Source: Candidatus Bathyarchaeia archaeon (lineage in GTDB: Archaea > Thermoproteota > Bathyarchaeia > Bathyarchaeales > Bathycorpusculaceae). Taken from it: a stretch of 64,000 bases of DNA. Below are positions 16,686-63,247 of the stretch, piece by piece. Every line of letters starts with the position of its first letter. Position 1 is the first letter of the stretch. Where the stretch lies: assembly GCA_049516875.1 (NCBI GenBank), contig JBEKSS010000001.1:128001-192000 (forward strand), given 5' to 3'. A program made the position numbers and the translations under genes. The notes under the pieces are model-generated. The model did not search any database, was not told the origin of the DNA, and saw only the letters and a program-made list of their open reading frames with translations.

Positions 16686-16735
16686 CCCCCGGGGTCAATA
16701 TATGATCCAAATATGATTTGACAAAAAGCGCGCGC
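16686..16735. repeat. ~50-bp dispersed element, copy 1 (ends in GCGCGCGC)
   Basis: CCCCCGGGGTCAATATATGATCCAAATATGATTTGACAAAAAGCGCGCGC aligns to 53873-53922. Confidence 0.85.
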
Positions 16736-55390: not shown

Positions 55391-56740
55391 TTGCTTAAGG
55401 AAGCTTGGACGCTTTCGATTGAAACCCTAAGCTGGATGGAAATGCGAAGGTTAAGCGAGCCATTGGCTTTGGCAAGAACGGTTAAACAGCTAGGTATGAC
55501 TGATCATAATGCTGTGAGGATGGCTCATCTACTTGTCTCTGAAACCGTGAGACGACAGAACTTCATAGACAAGTTCATAAACAACATCATAAAGCCAAAC
55601 TCTTTGAGCGAATTCAACTTTGGAATTCAAGCATTTCTGAGACTTTATGTATACCAGACGAGAATTGTCAAGAACTGGTCCAGAATAAATTTTGATGAAG
55701 CGGAGAACATAGTAAAACTTGCCCGCTCCATTTTGGGGTGGAAAACGCTGCAGCGAGTCGAACTAATTCTAGGCGTGTTACTGACTCAAAGAGCGGCATC
55801 AGTGTTCGAAGGCGGAAGCGACGAGGAGCAAATCGGGTTGCGAACTTTTCACCCATCGTGGTTTGTGAAATATTGCATAGGACTCTTCGGCAGAAGTGAG
55901 ACTGTCGACATGTTACAAGCGGACATGAAACCGCCTCCGACTTACGTGAGGATAAACACCCTTAAGGGTGATGAGAATAAGATCCTCGAGAGACTTGCTC
56001 AAGATTGCATTAACGTTGAGAAAGTTAATGAGCTGAAGTACACATACGAGGTCTCAGCCACACGGCAACCCGTAACTAGAACCGCGACTTTCCAAGAAGG
56101 TTTGGTCTATCTTCAGGATAAGGCCAGCTGTTTCGCAGTAGAGGCAGGAAACCCGACACGTGATATGACTGTTCTAGATGTTTGTGCAGCGCCCGGAGCG
56201 AAGACCACCTACCTCGCTCAGCTAATGCAAAACAAAGGTGAAATCATAAGCCTGGATTATTCGAAACGCAGAATGGCTACCTGGAAAAATGAAATTGCCC
56301 GCACGGGCGTTGAAATCGCCAAACCGATAATTGCTGACGCACGCGCACATTTGGCATTAGTTGCGAAGGCTGACTTGCTAATTCTGGATCCCCCATGCAC
56401 GGGCACAGGCACTTTTGGGAAGATGCCTTCAGCCAAATGGAGGCTTACGCCGGGTTCTGCAGAGAAAATGGCTGAAATTCAATGGCAAATGTTGAGCAAT
56501 TGTTCAGAATATGTGAAGCCCGGAGGAACACTGATCTATTCTACATGCAGCGTTACGGTAGAAGAGAATGAGATGCCAGTTGAGCGGTTTATGAAATGGC
56601 ATCCAGAGTTCTTGCTGACTGAAATAGCGCCAAGAATAGGTTTGCCGGGATTGAGAGGGCAGGAAAAGTGTCAAAGGCTTTATCCGCACATACATCGGTG
56701 CAATGGCTTCTTCATCGCGAAAATGTTGAAGAGCGAATGA
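55391..56740 (+). CDS. RsmB/NOP2/Sun-family m5C RNA methyltransferase
   Basis: RINTLK, QDKAS, DVCAAPGAKT, DPPCTG, YSTCS...EENE. Confidence 0.95.
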   Translation: MLKEAWTLSIETLSWMEMRRLSEPLALARTVKQLGMTDHNAVRMAHLLVSETVRRQNFIDKFINNIIKPNSLSEFNFGIQAFLRLYVYQTRIVKNWSRINFDEAENIVKLARSILGWKTLQRVELILGVLLTQRAASVFEGGSDEEQIGLRTFHPSWFVKYCIGLFGRSETVDMLQADMKPPPTYVRINTLKGDENKILERLAQDCINVEKVNELKYTYEVSATRQPVTRTATFQEGLVYLQDKASCFAVEAGNPTRDMTVLDVCAAPGAKTTYLAQLMQNKGEIISLDYSKRRMATWKNEIARTGVEIAKPIIADARAHLALVAKADLLILDPPCTGTGTFGKMPSAKWRLTPGSAEKMAEIQWQMLSNCSEYVKPGGTLIYSTCSVTVEENEMPVERFMKWHPEFLLTEIAPRIGLPGLRGQEKCQRLYPHIHRCNGFFIAKMLKSE

Positions 56741-56804
56741 ATCAAGGATATTTGAAGCCACAGTTCCTTCATCATGATGCTCTTGTTGCGTGTTTCTTTC
56801 TAGG

Positions 56805-57704
56805 CTACGCTTTCTTTGATTTCTCCAGTAGGCATAGCAATTCGAAAATCACCTTTGCGGCCTGAATGGCTGAAATGCCTTGGTCATAGTTCGGGGCAAT
56901 TTCCAGAACATCGAAACCAACTATCCGACTATCGCACACATCGTCCAGAATGTCGAGCAAAACAGTCATTTCGAGCCCGTCTGCCTCAGGATTTTGCACT
57001 GCAGGAACGTATGCAGGATCAAGGATGTCCATGTCAACTGACAAGTAGATGTTCCTGTATCCTTCCAGCTCTTCCCTCAGCCTGTTCGCGCTTCTCTTGC
57101 TGCCCATCTTTCGTATTTGGTGAGTTGTAAGAAAATCAATTCTTGTCTTTCTTGCGTACGCCAGTTCTTCCTTGCAAACTGCCCTTGTGCCGACTTCTAT
57201 AATTTTCGCTGGTTTTACTTCTTCGCTTATTCTACGCATGAAAGTTGTGTGAGAGAGTTTCAGCCCTAGGAACTCGTTTCGCAAGTCAAGATGTGCATCG
57301 AAACTGACTATTGCTGTTTCTGATGCCTTGTCTCTTAAGCTCCTCGCGATGCCAAGCGTTATTGTGTGTTCGCCACCGATTGTTACAGGCGTCTTTCCAT
57401 TTTCAATGATGCTTCTGATGACGTGTTCCAGGGTTTCTAAGGTCTTTTCAGTGTTTGCAGCGACATGCAAATCGCCCAAATCATGCAACATCAGGTCTTC
57501 AACGTCTATTCCCGTGCGCAGACTGTAAGTTTCAATGTTTAGTGATGCTTGTCTAATTGCGTTTGGACCAAACCGTGCTCCAGTGCGATAGGTACTGGTG
57601 ACATCGAATGGAACGCCCAGGATTACGTAATTAGCTTTCTCGAAAGACTTCTGAAAACCGCCAAAGACGTTTGATTGAGAAACAAAGAGTTCATGATTGC
57701 TCAT
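56805..57704 (-). CDS. speB: Agmatinase
   Basis: GVPFD.T.TYR.GARFGP, GGEHTIT, FDAHLD, SVDMDILDP. Confidence 0.95.
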   Translation of the reverse strand: MSNHELFVSQSNVFGGFQKSFEKANYVILGVPFDVTSTYRTGARFGPNAIRQASLNIETYSLRTGIDVEDLMLHDLGDLHVAANTEKTLETLEHVIRSIIENGKTPVTIGGEHTITLGIARSLRDKASETAIVSFDAHLDLRNEFLGLKLSHTTFMRRISEEVKPAKIIEVGTRAVCKEELAYARKTRIDFLTTHQIRKMGSKRSANRLREELEGYRNIYLSVDMDILDPAYVPAVQNPEADGLEMTVLLDILDDVCDSRIVGFDVLEIAPNYDQGISAIQAAKVIFELLCLLEKSKKA

Positions 57705-57765
57705 GTGATCTTCCACACTTCCTGCTTCTGTTTATCTTAACGGTGTATTCTAAACTTTTCCGTCA

Positions 57766-58297
57766 GCGCGCGCATAGGAGAACCTCTGAGCTTAGAATGG
57801 ATTGATGTGGACTTTGAAAAGAGAGTGATTGTTCTTAACAACCCAGAAAAACACGGGAACCCTAGAGCGTTTATGGTGTCTGAAAAGCTCGTGGCGATGC
57901 TCAACAGGCTGCCTAAAGATAACAGTAAGATGTTTGGGCTCCAGTTATGGCGCATAACATTCAACAACTTTAACAAGCAGAGGAAAAATGCTGCAAGGAA
58001 GCTGAGTAACCCAAGATTGTTGAGAATCCACTTCCACACTCTTAGACATTGGAAGGCAACGATGGAATACAATAGAACCAAGGATATCCTATACGTGATG
58101 AAGTTATCGGGACACAAGAACATTGCTAACACCCTGATCTACACACAATGATCTACACACAACTGGTAAAGTTTGAGGGAGACGAATACAACTCGGCAGT
58201 TGCCATCACATTGGAAGAAGCTAAGAAACTCATCGAAGCTGGATTTGAATATGTCTGCAATCATGAAAATGTCATGCTCTTCAGAAAACGAAAATAG
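57766..58297 (+). pseudogene. Tyrosine recombinase/integrase remnant (catalytic domain plus C-tail)
   Basis: ARIGE...EK...HFHTLRH...GHKNI.NTLIY (R-K-H-R-H-Y); a 14-bp duplication at 58135-58162 splits off the tail LVKFEGDEY...LIEAGFEYVC...LFRKRK; N-terminal half absent. Confidence 0.92.
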
Positions 58298-58324
58298 GAT
58301 AAAACTTTACCCCCAAACCCAAAC
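58297..58324. repeat. Left att-like site: GGATAAAACTTTACC plus arm CCCAAACCCAAAC
   Basis: 15-bp core identical to 60370-60384; arm is an inverted repeat of 60359-60371; overlaps the integrase stop codon. Confidence 0.75.
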
Positions 58325-58382
58325 TGCTCTCCGCAAGTGATAAGAATTTAGTTGAAGACATAATGGTGAAGGTGCACATTTC

Positions 58383-58826
58383 GTGACTGGAGAGCGCAAT
58401 GACTATTCACATTATACTGGGATTTTGTCAAATCTGATTGGTGGTTTGTATTTTGCTGCTGGTTTCACTTTCACCGCCATAACCCTGCTACTTACTTTTC
58501 AGACCCAGACAAGCCTCTTCTTTCAGATCACTCTTTTTATAATGAATATTATAGTCGATCTGTCCTTCTTCTTGGCACAATGGTACACAACGCATTCAAC
58601 CCTTTATGCAGCCATCCCGCCACTCACAGGATTTTCCCAGATTGCAAATTACTTGACGTTTTTGGTTGCAAGTCTGACGACGATAGTGCCAACGTTACTT
58701 TTCTTTGTTTATGGGTTTGTCTATTTGGGAATAGCATCGGCGATTCAATGGATAGCGATGCTCATCGCTGCGTATCTCTTCATTTATAGGCAAATCAGTA
58801 AGAAAACCATATTCCAGAAATCCTGA
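58383..58826 (+). CDS. Hypothetical 4-TM membrane protein
   Basis: 147-aa hydrophobic ORF, GAAGGTG SD-like sequence upstream. Confidence 0.75.
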   Translation: MTGERNDYSHYTGILSNLIGGLYFAAGFTFTAITLLLTFQTQTSLFFQITLFIMNIIVDLSFFLAQWYTTHSTLYAAIPPLTGFSQIANYLTFLVASLTTIVPTLLFFVYGFVYLGIASAIQWIAMLIAAYLFIYRQISKKTIFQKS

Positions 58827-58858
58827 AAGCAGAAACAAGAAACTAGTTTTCGTTAATA

Positions 58859-58866
58859 GCGCGCGC
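58859..58866. repeat. GCGCGCGC palindrome (TAGCGCGCGCTA)
   Basis: 32 bp after the stop at 58826. Confidence 0.9.
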
Positions 58867-58955
58867 TACCCTGGGAAATCGGTTGATGCTAGTACAACTA
58901 TGGTGAAAGAATTAATAGGAAAGAACACGCTTTCCTGTATTCGGAGACCGTATTT

Positions 58956-59303
58956 ATGATCAAGAAACCAGAATGGAAGCTTAATACTACTGTCACAAAG
59001 AAAATTCGGGTCCTAGACAAGGTTGAGGAGGAACGAGAGATCAATGCGTTTGACTCAGAAATGAATATGCCCTTTATTCTGGATGTTCCAGAAGGAATTT
59101 CAATGGAGGAAATAGAAACCAATAGATGGTATCGTGCGACATTTAAGGTTTACACGTCCAAATTGATCCCCGAAATAGAAGAAGAATGGTCTAAGGTGGC
59201 AAAGACAACTGGAGGTATTCGTGAAGGGATAGAACGAATGAAGCAATCTGGAGGGTACGGGACTTTATATAAGTTCGAATTGGTTTCACTAAAATCAACA
59301 TAA
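58956..59303 (+). CDS. Hypothetical protein, 115 aa
   Basis: Clean ORF; GAAAGAATTAATA promoter-like box upstream. Confidence 0.75.
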   Translation: MIKKPEWKLNTTVTKKIRVLDKVEEEREINAFDSEMNMPFILDVPEGISMEEIETNRWYRATFKVYTSKLIPEIEEEWSKVAKTTGGIREGIERMKQSGGYGTLYKFELVSLKST

Positions 59304-59319
59304 TCATAAACAGATGCTT

Positions 59320-59462
59320 TCAATAGACTTCATGCTCTTTTTTTGAACTGCTTGCATCTTGAATTAGGGTAATCCACTTGTTGTTTTCTTCTACTTTGAT
59401 TCCGCAGGCTTCAGCAGGAGTCTTACCAGCTATCCTTCATGTGGTCTTATGAAGCTGTGAAA
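59320..59462 (-). pseudogene. C-terminal remnant of an archaeal DDE transposase/integrase-core protein (IS6-like)
   Basis: HSFIRPHEG / AGKTPAEACGIKVEENNKWITLIQDAS across one frameshift. Confidence 0.7.
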
Positions 59463-59521
59463 CGAGTCCATATGCAATTTTTATTTTGCGAGCCCACACG
59501 ACTTACTCACATAATTGGTTA

Positions 59522-59529
59522 GCGCGCGC
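59522..59529. repeat. GCGCGCGC palindrome
   Basis: Directly upstream of the TTTAAATA box of the 59571 gene. Confidence 0.9.
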
Positions 59530-59570
59530 AAAAATCAATTTAAATAGCGGTTTTTAGCATAACGATAGTT

Positions 59571-59840
59571 ATGAGTCAAGCTCCATTTAGTCAAGAAGAC
59601 ATCAGTGAAGGCGAAGATATTGACTGGACAAACGAACAAGAACAATGGAACACATACAAACTCGCAGACGGAACAATCATGAAAGTAAAACTCGTCCTAA
59701 AAGGTGTCAAACGACTAAAAAAACACCTTCCAGACGGAACACCAATATATATGATAATGTCTGACAATGTTGTTCGTGTCATTAACGTTCCAGAGAATCT
59801 AAAGTTGAAGCCAAAACAGTCAGGTATGAAACCAGTCTAA
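59571..59840 (+). CDS. Small hypothetical protein, 89 aa
   Basis: EQWNTYKLADGT.MKVKLV...DGTPIY; own TATA box; flanked both sides by GCGCGCGC. Confidence 0.85.
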   Translation: MSQAPFSQEDISEGEDIDWTNEQEQWNTYKLADGTIMKVKLVLKGVKRLKKHLPDGTPIYMIMSDNVVRVINVPENLKLKPKQSGMKPV

Positions 59841-59853
59841 CCTGTTAGCCATA

Positions 59854-59861
59854 GCGCGCGC
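59854..59861. repeat. GCGCGCGC palindrome
   Basis: 13 bp after the stop at 59840. Confidence 0.9.
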
Positions 59862-59973
59862 TCAACATTGACTTTGCCGTTCAGACCTCAAAATTCGGAA
59901 AAACCTGATTGTTACATTACTGTTACCATAGCACTGTTGCGTTTTGATGGGAAAAGCTGTACATTGTGGTATT

Positions 59974-59981
59974 GCGCGCGC
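59974..59981. repeat. GCGCGCGC palindrome
   Basis: Just upstream of the CTATAAG box of the 60038 gene. Confidence 0.9.
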
Positions 59982-60037
59982 TGTTCTCAAACATAGAACT
60001 ATAAGTGTCCTACCTCGATTAATACCAAGAGGGGGAA

Positions 60038-60337
60038 GTGAAGTTGAAAGTTCTGTTGAAGCTAGGTTTTGTGAATGCTGCCTTGCTGATGCTGTGTATT
60101 GGTTCAGACTATCTAGAGTGGAGAAACCTCTTGGGTCTCCCAGGGATAGCTGATGTACTGTGGACTCCTATACGCATCACGATCTGGATAAGTAGCACCA
60201 GCGCATTTGGACCAGCCATCATTGATGGCGTTTCGTGGATGGACAACTGGAGTTTTATGATACTGTTAACGATTATTGCCGTCAATTTGGTAATTGTTTG
60301 GAGAATAGAACAGAGAAAGATTTCACTGATTCATTAA
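60038..60337 (+). CDS. Hypothetical small membrane protein, 99 aa
   Basis: GAGGGGG SD; N- and C-terminal hydrophobic segments. Confidence 0.7.
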   Translation: MKLKVLLKLGFVNAALLMLCIGSDYLEWRNLLGLPGIADVLWTPIRITIWISSTSAFGPAIIDGVSWMDNWSFMILLTIIAVNLVIVWRIEQRKISLIH

Positions 60338-60355
60338 ACTTCATGGACTTCTTCT

Positions 60356-60384
60356 GGGGTTTGGATTTGGGATAAAACTTTACC
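60356..60384. repeat. Right att-like site: arm GGGGTTTGGATTTG plus GGATAAAACTTTACC
   Basis: Core is a direct repeat of 58297-58311; arm inverted relative to 58312-58324. Confidence 0.75.
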
Positions 60385-60495
60385 TCCCTCTTCCTACACT
60401 CAGCTGAATCATGCTCCTGATAATCACCCTAACCCTGAGCTCGCGCGAGAATCTATGAAGCATTTAACTAGCGCTTTCTTTGTAATAATTCTATC

Positions 60496-61380
60496 ATGGG
60501 AGAATACGCGCGTGTATTGTTGTATCTTTTTTGGCTTGAACTAAAGAGGATTATATTTAAAGTGAAGTATTTTGCAGAAGTTGATGTGACGGACAACTGT
60601 AATCTTAGATGTAAACATTGCTATCATTTTCACGGTAAAGAGGATTTTAGAACACAAGAGCTATCCATAGATGTTTGGGAAAAAAGGTTCAAAGAACTCT
60701 ACAAGTCAGGAATAAGGAACATTCTTTTGGTTGGTGGTGAGCCTGCGCTCAGGATTGATGTTCTTATGCTCGCCCACGGGATATTTCCATTTGTTTACGT
60801 TATAACAAACGGAACAATAAAGATACCAGAAGAATTCACTCATAGACTATATGCTTCAATAGATGGGTCTCAAAAAACAAACGATTCACTCAGAGGGAAC
60901 GGTGTTTTTTCAAGTGTAATGAAAAACTTTTCAGGGGATAAGCGTGTTATTATAAATATGACAATCACGAAGGATAATTACAAAGAGCTTGAGGACATTA
61001 TGAAAATTGCAAAAGAGAATGGTTTCAAGGGTGTTGTTTGTAATATATGCGCAGGTGGAACCGATGTCAGCGTTACTATGGTTGTAAGAGAAAAAGAGAG
61101 AAAAACTATAGTAAAAGAACTGAAACGAGTGAAGACAAAATACCCAAAGGATTTTCTTTTGAGCAAAGCGATGTTAAAATGGTATGAATACCCAGACCAT
61201 AGTGGTCCATGCTACTGGGGCGACGAAGTGTTGCATTTTGACGTTTCATGGAACAGAAGAAGGTGTTTTGGAAACAATGCGGACTGTTCCAATTGCGGGT
61301 GTCTGGCAGGGGCCTTTCAAAGTCCTCTAGAAATGCTAAGGCATCCAAGAGAGATGATGAAAATAGTTGTATGTTCATAA
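60496..61380 (+). CDS. Radical SAM protein with C-terminal Cys cluster (Twitch/SPASM-like)
   Basis: CNLRCKHCY, GGEP, TNG, SIDG, C...C..CSNCGC. Confidence 0.9.
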   Translation: MGEYARVLLYLFWLELKRIIFKVKYFAEVDVTDNCNLRCKHCYHFHGKEDFRTQELSIDVWEKRFKELYKSGIRNILLVGGEPALRIDVLMLAHGIFPFVYVITNGTIKIPEEFTHRLYASIDGSQKTNDSLRGNGVFSSVMKNFSGDKRVIINMTITKDNYKELEDIMKIAKENGFKGVVCNICAGGTDVSVTMVVREKERKTIVKELKRVKTKYPKDFLLSKAMLKWYEYPDHSGPCYWGDEVLHFDVSWNRRRCFGNNADCSNCGCLAGAFQSPLEMLRHPREMMKIVVCS

Positions 61381-61571
61381 GCGAAGCACATCTCTTCCCA
61401 AGCGGCAGTTCATTGCTTTTCCCTTCATGACCTTACACTAGCTATTTCATATCGCACGTGTTCTTTCGTCTTTCTATTTGCGGTTTGAGAGTGTGAGGTT
61501 AAATGGGATAGTGAAACATTAAACTTATTAACGATACTGTAAATGCATTATGCTTAAAGGGGAATGAAAAA

Positions 61572-61931
61572 ATGTCGCTCGGATCAAGGCTGAAGATCGA
61601 AAGCAAAGGTATGTTTGTAACGTTTGTTTTCTACGCAATTGTTGGAATAATCTTTCTTGTCTTGGCACTGCCAATCGTCAGCTTTGCCCCACACTTAGCG
61701 ATAATCGGCATGTTCAGCCTCATAACTGCTTATGGGGTGCTTGGGAAAAGAGTCTGGACGATTTGGTTTGTGATGATTTTGTTTTTTGTTGGAACAACAT
61801 TTTCAGCCTTCATGATTTACAACATTCCGCAAATAGACTATCTTCTCGGTGTAGGCGCCATACTCTACCTTATTCTGACATGGGCCTTCACTGGTTATGC
61901 TGTGGCGAAAAGAAAAGTATTTGAAAGCTAG
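61572..61931 (+). CDS. Hypothetical 4-TM membrane protein
   Basis: 119-aa hydrophobic ORF with TATA-like CTTATTAA and SD upstream. Confidence 0.75.
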   Translation: MSLGSRLKIESKGMFVTFVFYAIVGIIFLVLALPIVSFAPHLAIIGMFSLITAYGVLGKRVWTIWFVMILFFVGTTFSAFMIYNIPQIDYLLGVGAILYLILTWAFTGYAVAKRKVFES

Positions 61932-61990
61932 ATGAGCTCATCACTGAAAACGTTCTCGCTTGGGGAATAGCTTCCCCTCTTAGTACTCGA

Positions 61991-63247
61991 CTAGTTGCCT
62001 TGCAGAAGGCTTTCAGTTTTGAAAAGCTGCACTGTGACTGGTTCGCCAGCATCGATGAACTGCACATCTTCAGCAATCTCCACAAACCCGTCGGCCTTTG
62101 CGAGTGTCGTTATAGCCCCGGAAAGCGCTGTCGGAATGGGCTCAGCAATCAGTCCTTTTGGCTTTTCCTGCCTTAACTTCACCATGATGAAAGTTCTTCG
62201 CCCTTTTGCTGGGAACATTCTCATCGATGCAAAAGCCTTCACTTCTATAGGCTTCTCAGCTTTTCTTCCGCTCATGACCTGAATTAATGGACGCACAAAC
62301 AATTGAAAGGTCAGCAAGGCTGATGTTGGATGGCCAGGAAGTGAAAACACTAGCTTTCCAGCAACAGATGCCACTGTCGTGGGCTTTCCTGGTTTGATTG
62401 CAATCCCACTGAGAATTATGCCCGGTTCTCCAAGCATGCTTAAGGTTTTCGGCACGATGTCTTTTGGACCTACTGAGACTCCCCCCGAAGTCACAACCAT
62501 GTCCGAGGAGACAAGCGCACGCCTCAGGGCTTCACGCAATTCGTCCAAGTTGTCGGGAAAGACTCCTAAATAGACTGGTCTTCCCCCGCTTTCGAGCACG
62601 GCCGTGCTTAGGCTGTAAGCGTTTATGTCGTAAATCTTCCCAGGAGGTAATTTCATGCCAGGTTCGGTTATTTCAGGTCCTGTCGAAAGAACGGCGATTC
62701 GTGGAACCGCGTAGACTCTTGCCTTCGCCTTGCCCAAGGCCGCCAAGACACCGATTTCCCTTGAACCTAACAATTGCCCCTTCCTAAGGATGGTTTTGCC
62801 TTTCTTGATGTCCGCCCCAGCTTTCATGATATTCTCATCTCTGCCTGCGGCACCAAAAACTGTGACCTCATCACCGTTTCGACTGGTATGTTCTATCATG
62901 ACAACTGCGTCTGCACCTTCCGGTATAGGCGCACCCGTTACAATTTCAGCAGCTTGGCCCTTCATAACAGTCGTTTCGGGAAGTTCTCCAATGTTCACAG
63001 TCCCAGAAACCTTCAGCAAGACTGGCCTGTTCTCCTCTGCACCAAACGTGTCTTCTGCTCTGACGGCATACCCGTCAACCGCAGACCGATTGAAAGGCGG
63101 AATGTCCAAGCTGGCAGTTATGTTTTCAGCCAGGACACGATTGCTAGACTCCAGAAGAGGAATCTCTTCGACGCCTAAAGGTTTGGCTTTAAGCTGGCCC
63201 TCAATAACCTTTTTCGCCTCATCAAAAGTCAACAGTTTCCTGAACAC
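61991..63247 (-). CDS. moeA: Molybdopterin molybdenumtransferase MoeA
   Basis: PPFNRSAVDGYAV, TGAPIP.GADAVV..E, SGGVSVG..D, IKPGKP, LPGHP. Confidence 0.96.
   Translation of the reverse strand: MFRKLLTFDEAKKVIEGQLKAKPLGVEEIPLLESSNRVLAENITASLDIPPFNRSAVDGYAVRAEDTFGAEENRPVLLKVSGTVNIGELPETTVMKGQAAEIVTGAPIPEGADAVVMIEHTSRNGDEVTVFGAAGRDENIMKAGADIKKGKTILRKGQLLGSREIGVLAALGKAKARVYAVPRIAVLSTGPEITEPGMKLPPGKIYDINAYSLSTAVLESGGRPVYLGVFPDNLDELREALRRALVSSDMVVTSGGVSVGPKDIVPKTLSMLGEPGIILSGIAIKPGKPTTVASVAGKLVFSLPGHPTSALLTFQLFVRPLIQVMSGRKAEKPIEVKAFASMRMFPAKGRRTFIMVKLRQEKPKGLIAEPIPTALSGAITTLAKADGFVEIAEDVQFIDAGEPVTVQLFKTESLLQGN

Follow-up and report, generated by a model that had tools for sequence, protein, structure and literature searches.

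A short GC palindrome as the probable mark of a lineage-specific cut-and-rejoin process in a Bathyarchaeia archaeon

Results and Discussion

The octamer GCGCGCGC, which punctuates a variable island in a window of 64 kb (the whole stretch of DNA that was analysed) from the genome of a Candidatus Bathyarchaeia archaeon, probably marks a lineage-specific way to cut and rejoin DNA. The motif is abundant and specific in phase, lies mainly in intergenic and accessory DNA, is restricted to certain relatives and coincides with breakpoints and truncated genes. A more specific reading, that it is the signal of a lineage-specific, sequence-specific break-and-join activity acting at the motif edge, is advanced tentatively and held at somewhat less than even confidence.

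Structure of the island

The window was found to possess GCGCGCGC at 16728, 57766, 58859, 59522, 59854 and 59974 and nowhere else, six copies compared with 0.63 expected, a number which none of 100 dinucleotide shuffles reached. The G+C content is 0.39–0.41 over 58–62 kb compared with 0.44–0.51 in the rest of the window. The features are as follows.

16728..16735: GCGCGCGC, the sole window copy outside the island, 12 bp away from the right-hand edge of 464 bp unalignable to genome G002
57766..57773: GCGCGCGC, left border of the variable island
57774..58297, plus strand: tyrosine-integrase remnant, catalytic domain only, 5' end cut by the motif
58297..58324, plus strand: dispersed 28-nt repeat (GGATAAAACTTTACCCCCAAACCC...), one of about 25 copies in the genome
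58383..58826, plus strand: hydrophobic 147-aa ORF without a Pfam family
58859..58866: GCGCGCGC, here within the full 12-mer TAGCGCGCGCTA, left edge of the mobile module
58868..59513, plus strand: mobile module, with 91–97% identical, non-syntenic copies in all four genus relatives
59522..59529: GCGCGCGC, right edge of the module and truncation point of a transposase remnant
59571..59840, plus strand: 89-aa ORF with a TATA-like box upstream, inside a 332-bp motif-to-motif unit
59854..59861: GCGCGCGC, beginning 13 bp past the stop of the 89-aa ORF
59862..59973: 112-bp inter-motif stretch with no convincing ORF and no second copy in the genome
59974..59981: GCGCGCGC, upstream of the 99-aa ORF
60038..60337, plus strand: hydrophobic 99-aa ORF without a Pfam family
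60440..60449: CTCGCGCGAG, a palindrome distinct from the motif
60496..61380, plus strand: Radical-SAM protein of 294 aa, final cargo gene of the island
61487..61556: right island border, a multi-copy repeat about 60–70 bp long, motif absent

The motif positions, their spacings to stop codons, the 332-bp unit (59522 to 59854) and the co-oriented, AT-rich ORFs of the original prediction were all borne out. The ORFs at 58383, 58956, 59571, 60038, 60496 and 61572 are all encoded on the plus strand, the motif at 58859 begins 32 bp past the stop of the 147-aa ORF, and the motif at 59522 precedes TTTAAATA by 17 bp. Homology of the left core flank (RsmB-like and agmatinase genes) to the four genus relatives stops at 57761–57763, and core homology picks up again at about 61488. 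The right-border repeat, at which the contigs of four runs break, also has copies inside the relatives' islands. Positions 58340–58761 are 93.6% identical to G000:C9:108905–109326, and a second, diverged copy of the 28-nt repeat lies at 60357–60384.

The mobile module contains a 115-aa gene (58956–59303) with its upstream region and, on the minus strand, the transposase remnant described below. The core flanks of the relatives carrying it at 91–97% identity are just 74–83% identical. In G002 and G004, a (GC)5 run is located eight bases further into the module than the window motif at 59522. The 89-aa ORF matched no Pfam family above cut-off. Two genes had been described as truncated exactly at the motif, and this was confirmed for the integrase, at 57766, and for a minus-strand, frameshifted C-terminal remnant of an IS6-like (DDE) transposase (about 59315–59515), which stops at the motif at 59522. 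As the public contigs of four other runs repeat the same window junctions, these are not the result of misassembly.

Abundance and placement of the motif

A genome-wide count, proposed with the original prediction, identified 388 runs of (GC)≥4 (447 overlapping matches) in the 2.43-Mb genome, with 332 of n = 4, 53 of n = 5 and 3 of n = 6. With 894 counts over both strands, compared with 542 for the runner-up word, GCGCGCGC leads all 8-mers and occurs at 19 times the zero-order expectation, with other GC-only palindromes at 3–37 copies. In the (GC)n length series for n = 2–6 (5841, 577, 332, 53, and 3, respectively), n = 4 is in excess. Standalone (GC)4 occurs 212 times and standalone (CG)4 only 28 times. 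Because of this phase specificity a generic Z-DNA explanation, such as the Z-DNA-prone core originally envisaged, fits poorly.

The majority of the runs (319 of 388, 82%) are intergenic, compared with 20.7% of bases as estimated from crude gene calls (binomial p = 4e-148), and 65 lie in coding DNA. Site density falls with rising local GC (r = -0.40). The sites are clustered, with 163 of 371 adjacent spacings at or below 1500 bp (null mean 102, maximum 127 in 200 trials) and 11 runs of five sites within 2.3 kb compared with 1.5 under the null, and exactly one predicted gene is contained in 89 of 205 motif-to-motif intervals. No type of spacer is preferred (0.77 motifs per kb in convergent, 0.58 in divergent and 0.64 in tandem spacers), the motif-bearing spacers being tandem in 130 cases, divergent in 68 and convergent in 60. 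The ~40 bp immediately upstream of starts are avoided, and 45 of the 162 tandem-spacer sites lie within 50 bp past a stop. Conservation of the flanks is confined to positions -2 to +2, as a weak TA...TA which yields the wider consensus TAGCGCGCGCTA. A shared element end was not found (just seven flank pairs among 774 half-sites), nor was a stable fold of the 22-nt motif context (-1.3 kcal/mol, z = 0.3, no better than shuffles).

Distribution among relatives

All five genomes of the genus are rich in the motif, as are a few related genera, with next to none in most relatives; motif-rich genomes include G001, G003, G033, G040, G047, and G055. In C1:17.6–363 kb, only four of 48 sites lie in DNA alignable to G002, though 58% of that DNA aligns, and two of 38 intergenic sites align compared with 37% of intergenic bases. 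In a close genome pair, unaligned DNA holds 3.84 sites per 10 kb and aligned DNA 1.11. The original observation that core genes lack the motif stands for the window only in that the core is motif-poor everywhere; the motif itself is a genome-wide feature, which was not visible from the window alone. Ten of 58 G004 sites are kept in G002 and eight sites differ by point substitutions only, which indicates that many sites are simply inherited. G002 and G000 share a motif-carrying 1.7-kb island segment at 99% identity.

Breakpoints and truncated genes

It had been suggested that breakpoints would fall on the motif, and in aligned genomes they do so far above chance. In the closest pair (G004 and G002, ~95% identical, 266 kb compared), the motif occurs within 12 bp in either genome at 32 of 102 internal homology ends, and in each genome 15 ends lie within 3 bp of it (control 0.65%); about 70 of the 102 are without a nearby motif. 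Between G002 and G000, a motif is found no more than 3 bp from 8 and 15 of 272 HSP ends, with shifted controls of 0.25 and 0.37% (p = 5e-7 and 2e-13, respectively). At motif-bearing breakpoints the motif is usually present in only one of the two genomes, and at some module ends it is common to both, with divergence beyond it; most events are unpolarised, having been compared without outgroups. The motif lies at an edge of just one of the ~12 clean indels that separate G002 from G000. Within-genome repeat ends showed no enrichment at the motif, and no joint at a motif was found in the contigs of four runs, which mask rare variants.

The motif was further found, as predicted, to mark joints of unrelated modules, to be concentrated in accessory DNA and to cap truncated genes. 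Integrase fragments are capped by it at different positions (57766 in the window, C1:230907, C12:2099, and C3:16082), and in the window, G001, and G004 the 115-aa gene module is capped on its 5' side by (GC)n at three different positions. Replacements anchored at the motif were also identified: a single motif in G002 takes the place of 27.7 kb of G004, and elsewhere 2436 bp correspond to 62 bp beginning with the motif. Four motifs stand in otherwise conserved spacers where relatives have 4–7 unrelated bases or 43 bp. At G2C4:107706, GAACCCT in G004 corresponds to AGCGCGCGCAC in G002 between conserved flanks; similar cases with conserved flanks are G2C4:110017 (compared with G000) and C1:121879 (compared with G002), and at G4C1:34483 43 bp correspond to AGCGC, which completes a motif. 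For these four gains, creation at the joint fits better than a pre-existing signal.

One module gain or loss has the motif on both sides when the site is occupied and a single near-motif when it is empty (an 8-bp duplication), and such clean pairs of motif-module-motif and single motif number one among 1769 flank pairs. Large insertions flanked by direct repeats of 12–22 bp hold numerous motifs in their interior, with eight in the 20-kb insertion at G4C13:41021–61149. Two-sided site-specific exchange was not upheld as the usual event, as most breakpoints have the motif in one genome and no recombinase arms are conserved.

The integrase and other candidate enzymes

Positions 57774–58151 match positions 38–167 of 172 of the Pfam Phage_integrase family, and the window integrase corresponds to residues ~114–286 of an intact 286-aa paralog, about 113 N-terminal residues being gone. 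Searches of the window with three intact paralogs (tblastn) recovered the C-terminal part only, at 57.7–58.3 kb, and not the N-terminal half (other matches E 0.2–0.56); an SSV-type split-integrase element was rejected on this basis. A 14-bp tandem duplication at 58135–58148, which produces a frameshift in the remnant, is absent from the contigs of all four other runs. This integrase family has the densest motif surroundings (a mean of 3.3 sites within 2.5 kb compared with a genome mean of 0.96). The expected enrichment near related integrases of other genomes did not materialise, since 80 such loci have just seven motifs in 526,875 bp; the motif occurs at just one of seven viral loci with a related integrase. 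The proposal that the integrase captures and stacks DNA at the motif thus fails, its window copy being truncated by the motif and its relatives motif-poor elsewhere. The remnant at 57774 is a truncated passenger and neither the cause of the motif nor its enzyme.

Six candidate enzymes were checked across genomes, and none tracks the motif. The distributions of IS6 transposases, IS630-type transposases and the 115-aa protein do not follow it. An N4/N6 methylase is patchy, occurring in G000, G003, weakly in G004, and also in motif-poor G006 and G023. C5 methylases (PF00145) were not found in eight of nine motif-rich genomes (G000, G001, G003, G004, G033, G040, G047, and G055), with a sub-threshold match in the ninth, G002. 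Ku was found in G000, G002, and G004, and not in motif-rich G001, G003, G033, G040, G047, and G055.

Comparison with known systems

The window resembles an integron in its small, unrelated, mostly single-gene modules separated by palindromes beside a tyrosine-integrase gene, and in the one module gain or loss with a repeat on both sides. It was rightly predicted not to be a classical integron: no intact integrase of IntI type was found (only a catalytic fragment) and there are no attC-type arms or hairpins. In addition, the repeat is only 8–12 bp with unique flanks, the modules bring promoter-like boxes of their own, orientation is unconstrained genome-wide although the window array is co-oriented, and the motif is spread over 388 sites, mostly at one-sided joints.

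The highly iterated palindrome HIP1 (GCGATCGC) of cyanobacteria is likewise a GC-rich octameric palindrome, the most abundant 8-mer and lineage-specific. It is tied to a CGATCG methylase and spread over coding and non-coding DNA, with sites positionally conserved between relatives; it is not known to have a settled function. In contrast, the present motif is 82% intergenic (65 of 388 sites coding), occurs in non-conserved DNA and at breakpoints (4 of 48 sites alignable to G002; 10 of 58 G004 sites kept in G002), and no C5 methylase was found with it.

Short repeats at the edges of small modules also recall the PeSL cassettes of T4-type phages and lambdoid boundary sequences, which border short new genes in hyperplastic regions, where they are considered to favour the shuffling of modules. 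These, however, are longer promoter-plus-stem-loop units acting via homology between copies, whereas here a bare 8-mer, usually in one partner, is found in a cellular archaeal genome. The GC clusters of yeast mitochondria are, similarly, strain-variable, rearrangement-associated palindromes scattered in AT-richer intergenic DNA, but they are folded elements of 30–50 bp in sequence families, and the motif is 8–12 bp without a stable fold. REP/BIME sequences with RAYT (20–40 nt hairpin families) differ in the same respects, the core here having no flank families. Transposon ends produce one-ended adjacent deletions, and IS6/IS26-type elements 8-bp target duplications; comparable are the joints at a fixed-sequence edge, the arbitrarily cut neighbours and the one 8-bp duplication. 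Unlike at transposon ends, no repeated element lies behind the motif, and IS6 and IS630-type transposases are not co-distributed with it.

Alternative explanations

The motif could be filler at repair joints, whereby ends tailed or patched with self-complementary (GC)n would pair and be ligated, leaving a motif derived from neither parent. This has an outside but appreciable chance of being correct, and it is consistent with the motif being in one genome only at most motif-bearing breakpoints, with the four de novo motifs between conserved flanks, with the unique flanks and range of n from 3 to 6, and with the Ku homolog in G000, G002, and G004. However, the dominance of n = 4 (332 of 388) and the palindrome-extending TA...TA flanks are not what untemplated tailing would give, six motif-rich genomes yielded no Ku, no polymerase candidate was identified, and at some module ends two genomes have the motif in common before they diverge. 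It is also unlikely that the motif is a regulatory or packaging/transfer site of mobile elements from an imported gene pool, with a secondary link to breakpoints. The motif-rich, direct-repeat-flanked insertions, the higher density in unaligned DNA, the patchy spread over genera, the 99% identical 1.7-kb segment and the placement of sites relative to starts and stops all agree with such a pool, which leaves unexplained the 0–3 bp joints (15 of 102 ends per genome), the motif-cut genes and the conserved-spacer gains. Furthermore, promoter-side and terminator-side spacers are not preferred, and viral contigs with the related integrase mostly lack the motif. A structure-driven fragile site, at which Z-DNA or slipped GC would stall replication and cause breaks and template switches without a dedicated protein, is improbable. 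Alternating purine-pyrimidine tracts that are self-complementary, and can pair with any copy in either orientation, would suit it, as would the motif-anchored deletions and, anecdotally, CA/GT-type tracts near some motifs. Structure alone would not be expected to give the phase specificity or a peak at exactly 8 bp, nor does it explain the 19-fold excess and the restriction to some lineages of similar GC, and the motif context folds no better than shuffles.

It is very improbable that the region is an integron-like platform whose neighbouring tyrosine integrase recombines cassettes at a (GC)4 core. The five co-oriented small genes parted by the motif beside an integrase gene point towards it, together with the motif density around that integrase family, the one clean occupied and empty pair with a duplicated motif, and the share of single-gene intervals. 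Against this, the integrase is a 5'-truncated passenger whose relatives' loci are motif-poor, binding arms and hairpins are not conserved, orientation is free, the 1769 flank pairs gave a single clean case, and the joints are mostly one-sided. There is scarcely any likelihood of a HIP1-like iterated palindrome that a methyltransferase maintains together with biased mismatch repair of near-cognate sequences. The rank of the octamer as top 8-mer, the eight G002/G004 sites differing by point substitutions alone and an excess of transition-type one-off variants (1.4–1.8 times reversed-word controls) would be in keeping with one, but the methylases were not found or are patchy as described, the sites are mostly intergenic and seldom positionally conserved, and the coincidence with breakpoints is unexplained.

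Proposed break-and-join activity

In the break-and-join reading, a putative sequence-specific protein would recognise the 8-mer and cut or stall at its edge, and the motif-bearing end would then be joined to DNA with or without a motif, in events that appear to be mostly one-sided. The outcome would be deletions, replacements and insertions with the joint 0–3 bp from an intact motif. Genes would be truncated at arbitrary positions and, over time, runs of small modules split by the motif would arise. Such an activity may shuffle modules in an integron-like manner without being an integron, a view held with some reserve, and the window would be one of many sites where unrelated pieces were stitched together.

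Abundance and Placement of the Octamer

Counted genome-wide, as had been proposed with the original prediction, the (GC)4 octamer GCGCGCGC was found to be a feature of the whole genome (G000; 2.43 Mb in 20 contigs), with 447 copies when overlaps are included. The window corresponds to C1:128001-192000 of G000. It is the most frequent 8-mer, with 894 occurrences on both strands compared with 542 for the runner-up, at 19 times the zero-order expectation; the remaining GC-only palindromes have 3–37 copies each. Runs of at least four GC units number 388 (332 of four units, 53 of five and three of six) and shorter runs 577 (three units) and 5841 (two units), a series with an excess at exactly 8 bp. 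Standalone (GC)4 tracts number 212 vs. 28 for standalone (CG)4. The flanks extend the palindrome only weakly, with T at 43% and A at 58% in the two positions ahead of the motif, and T at 52% and A at 40% in the two that follow.

By the calls of a crude custom gene finder, which scored 79% of the genome as coding, the 388 runs comprise 319 intergenic, 65 coding and four straddling ones (p 4e-148). Motif density per kb of spacer is about equal in convergent (0.77), divergent (0.58) and tandem (0.64) spacers, and the motif is therefore tied to neither promoters nor terminators. The sites are clustered: 163 of 371 adjacent spacings are at most 1500 bp (null mean 102, null maximum 127 in 200 trials), and groups of five sites packed into 2.3 kb number 11 vs. 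1.5 expected. Among motif-to-motif intervals of 80–3000 bp (n = 205), 89 hold one predicted gene, 67 none and 49 two or more. A site lies within 2.5 kb of 18 of the 40 contig ends (26% for random windows). Site counts drop as local GC rises (r = -0.40).

The Island and Its Gene Fragments

The window contains six octamer matches vs. 0.63 from dinucleotide shuffles (none of 100 shuffles reached six). They stand where the original prediction had placed them (57766, 58859, 59522, 59854 and 59974, and also 16728), as does CTCGCGCGAG at 60440. The distances from stop codons to motifs, the TATA-like box downstream of 59522 and the 332-bp palindrome-bounded unit were likewise borne out on the sequence, as was the co-orientation of the ORFs, every one from 58383 to 61931 being on the + strand. 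The G+C content of the island stretch drops to 0.39–0.41. Two genes had been described as truncated at the motif, and both are:

57774-58151, + strand: tyrosine integrase catalytic domain (Pfam positions 38-167 of 172), starting directly after the motif at 57766
~59315-59515, minus strand: frameshifted C-terminal remnant of a transposase, terminating at the motif at 59522

The integrase fragment lacks ~113 N-terminal residues compared with intact paralogs of 281–295 aa elsewhere in the genome, such as that at C14:33898-34758, and the N-terminal half is found nowhere else in the window. Its frame break is a 14-bp tandem duplication (58135-58148), which is missing in contigs from all four other public runs. 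The transposase remnant has a full-length relative of 367 aa in G004, another genome of the genus, which looks, judged by eye, like an IS6-type transposase with an N-terminal zinc finger. Rfam gave no match over 57000-62500, and the window has no tRNA genes.

Public runs holding this stretch come from peat and wetland; these habitats and the relatives of the integrase fragment indicate that the organism probably belongs to Bathyarchaeia. Misassembly was ruled out since the island recurs in contigs from four other runs, with one contig of 11,219 nt covering 55500-61544 with 51 differences. The sole alternative joint in these contigs (58317 to 60359, 20-nt side) lies within a 28-nt repeat, and none has its joint at a motif; as contigs cannot reveal rare forms, this lack is uninformative on activity.

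That repeat, GGATAAAACTTTACCCCCAAACCC, occurs at 58297-58324 and 60357-60384 and is dispersed in ~25 copies through the genome (e.g., C14:5748 and C9:112877) and in many copies in every genus relative, in island spacers and with some copies adjoining a (GC)4. It often has GGGTTTGG or GGTTGG in front, giving a weak inverted repeat, and even the best copy folds only marginally (-7 kcal/mol, z -1.7). Visual inspection showed simple tracts (CACACAC, GTCGTCGTC, TACCTACC and the like) close to a number of motifs and 28-nt repeats (e.g., C1:47785, C9:112827 and C14:12940).

A Hypervariable Hotspot

The locus is a hypervariable hotspot. On the left core flank, homology to all four genus relatives (G001–G004) stops at 57761-57763, 2–5 bases short of the motif, and on the right it restarts at ~61488. 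The DNA enclosed by the same flanks amounts to 12.5 kb in G002 (six motif sites) and 9.5 kb in G003 (four), and its content is unlike that of the window, a few brief matches excepted (to an integrase-like piece and to copies of the border repeat); the flanks are split over two contigs in G004 and rearranged in G001.

Within the island, the module at 58868-59513, bounded by the motifs at 58859 and 59522, has counterparts of 91–97% identity at non-syntenic positions in each of the four relatives, compared with only 74–83% for the core flanks. On its 5' side homology ends at three distinct points (window, G001 and G004), each capped by a GC-alternating tract (GCGCGCGC, GCGCGCG and GCGCGG), and G002 and G003 continue past this side without a cap. 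At the 3' side a (GC)5 tract is present in G002 and G004, eight bases before the position of the window's motif. Neighboring G002 modules are also motif-bounded, and their homologs are spread over three contigs of G000.

This module carries a gene for a 115-aa protein (58956-59303), which is single-copy in all five genus genomes at 93–98% amino-acid identity, in a new neighborhood in each, and was not found in the 31 other genomes searched. Its conservation greatly exceeds that of the core flanks (74–83% DNA identity), suggestive of a recent spread between species. It has no Pfam family and no Atlas neighbor; its single-sequence structure model was poor (pLDDT 74.8 in one of five models and ~35 in the others), and a fold search on it returned nothing at E ≤ 0.001.

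A segment of 1.7 kb (G000:C3:12560-14226) is 99% identical to G002:C2:23089-24755, which sits in the island syntenic with the window's island. As core genes are only ~83% identical, the comparison points to a recent transfer between species. The right island border is marked by a multi-copy sequence of ~60–70 bp (61487-61556) just upstream of a gene for a 119-aa membrane protein, with more copies at G000:C4:162534, C14:23664 and within the G001–G004 islands. In run X8 it has a depth of 2.3x, and it is a point where contigs from four runs break. Possible roles are those of an attachment site or of a shared leader.

Breakpoints between Related Genomes

Joints were compared on stretches of G002 (394 kb) and G004 (266 kb) rebuilt from pieces. 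The coincidence of breakpoints with the motif, which the original prediction had put forward for checking, was found far above shifted controls. Between G002 and G000 (80–87% identity; 272 ends of alignments of at least 300 bp), a motif lies within 3 bp of eight ends on the G000 side and 15 on the G002 side (controls 0.25 and 0.37%; p 5e-7 and 2e-13). In the syntenic range (346 kb), the part that aligns comprises 58% of the DNA and only four of 48 sites; for intergenic bases and intergenic sites the values are 37% and two of 38.

Between the sister genomes G004 and G002 (~95% identity), 32 of 102 internal alignment ends are no more than 12 bp from a motif in one genome or the other, and 15 ends per side are no more than 3 bp away (control 0.65%). 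By our reading of the joints, the motif is present in both genomes at ~4 of the 32 and in one genome at the rest. Site density is 3.84 per 10 kb in unaligned DNA vs. 1.11 in aligned DNA. The 58 G004 sites divide into 10 conserved in G002, six in aligned DNA with one to three substitutions, 10 at alignment ends and 32 within unaligned DNA.

Several kinds of event were recognized. Motif-anchored replacements include a single G002 motif in place of 27.7 kb in G004; 2436 bp in G002 in place of 62 bp in G004 beginning with a (GC)3-type tract (its initial CGCGCGC was counted as a motif, since with the preceding base it overlaps GCGCGCGC); and 43 bp in G002 in place of AGCGC in G004, completing a motif. 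Gains within conserved spacers are exemplified by G2C4:107706 (contig 4 of G002), where G002 has AGCGCGCGCAC, G004 GAACCCT and G000 AACCAT-like bases, with two like cases against G000 or G002. Clean gain or loss of a module with a motif was seen once in 1769 flank pairs, as a 425-bp G002 insert between GCGCGCGC and GCGCGCTC for which G004 has the empty site GCGCACGC. Large insertions with direct repeats of 12–22 bp have motifs internally and none at their edges, and among ~12 clean indels that distinguish G002 from G000, just one is bordered by a motif. Integrase fragments are cut at four different residues, each at a motif (window 57766, C1:230907, C12:2099 and C3:16082).

Distribution and Candidate Agents

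The 12-mer form TAGCGCGCGCTA has 23 copies in G000, 3, 9, 10 and 16 in the four genus relatives, and is present in two of 26 further family or order genomes (the reversed-word control was 0 throughout). The 10-mer form AGCGCGCGCT, counted over 61 genomes (control counts 0–8), has 29–115 copies within the genus, 63, 53 and 45 in G033, G040 and G047 (three further genera of the same family), 23 in a genome from another family of the order (G055), 7–16 in a few more and 0–1 in most of the remainder. Motif-rich genomes are mostly larger (2.0–2.7 Mb), yet G032 and G038 (2.4–2.5 Mb) are without the motif.

A repeated element or common transposon end behind the motif was ruled out, as only seven pairs among 774 half-sites share a flank. 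Within-genome repeat ends are not enriched at the motif, whatever the identity cut, and the GGTTCTTTCACAAACG-like sequence beside three motifs has only chance matches elsewhere. Among the genomes searched, the phyletic patterns of the N4/N6 methylase, C5 methylases, IS6 transposases, IS630-type transposases (DDE_3), Ku and the 115-aa protein do not match that of the motif. Paralog families enriched near motifs appear, judged from their sequences, to be ordinary cargo. The N4/N6 DNA methyltransferase (SPPY motif; G000:C8:46664-47578) lies in a motif-rich island of 41% GC and is patchy in relatives. The Ku homolog (G000:C9:92481-93017; Pfam Ku, E 1.7e-40) is also present in G002, G004 and four motif-poor relatives; Ku is uncommon in archaea.

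Interpretation and Significance

The sequence- and phase-specific excess, joints 0–3 bp off an intact motif, arbitrary truncations and unique flanks together argue, tentatively, for some process that may recognize the 8-mer and break or join DNA at its edge, with the motif mostly in one partner. That this is the work of a dedicated (GC)4-directed enzyme, which would cut at the edge of the 8-mer, join arbitrary DNA and build the accessory genome as arrays of palindrome-separated modules, is a more doubtful proposition. End-joining by such an enzyme would lead to capture, truncation, deletion and re-stacking of gene-sized pieces.

The motif might instead be filler made at the joint, an account that the gains within conserved spacers keep alive and that we regard as rather unlikely, or a signature of the gene pool from which imported elements come, which the motif richness of inserted elements sustains and which is slightly less plausible again. 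A fragile site of purely structural origin is improbable and hard to square with the phase specificity. The originally predicted integron-like model, with the window's integrase as recombinase, fails the tests run here and is very improbable: relatives of the integrase fragment were confirmed at 421 places, and the 80 loci listed, nearly all from Bathyarchaeia, hold only seven sites in 526,875 bp of other genomes; the motif is at only one of seven viral loci, and no attC-like hairpin was found at the motif. A methylation model like that of HIP1 also fails the tests made and is the least credible of all.

If the reading of an 8-mer-recognizing process is true, one 8-bp word would lie behind about one third of recent structural differences between the sister genomes, and searching for the motif would be an easy way to locate the accessory DNA of such genomes and the joints within it. 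A dedicated (GC)4 enzyme, if true, would constitute a gene-shuffling system unlike integrons, transposons and CRISPR adaptation. The motif-rich genomes (G000–G004, G033, G040, G047 and G055) and motif-poor ones of the same family, among them G032, G038 and G005–G012, offer a contrast for phyletic profiling to find the responsible gene. The records retrieved in literature searches on the octamer in archaea or intergenic DNA, on archaeal highly iterated palindromes and on integrases or genomic islands of Bathyarchaeia held nothing on such a motif, and 'palindrom' and 'GCGC' are absent from the main text of PMC11697101. Even with a mundane mechanism, the motif would pose in archaea a puzzle comparable to that of HIP1 in cyanobacteria, one undescribed in the literature searched. 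The hosts are widespread, uncultured archaea of peat and wetland, and the reading, if true, would make it testable how gene islands are built up and renewed in archaea poor in insertion sequences.
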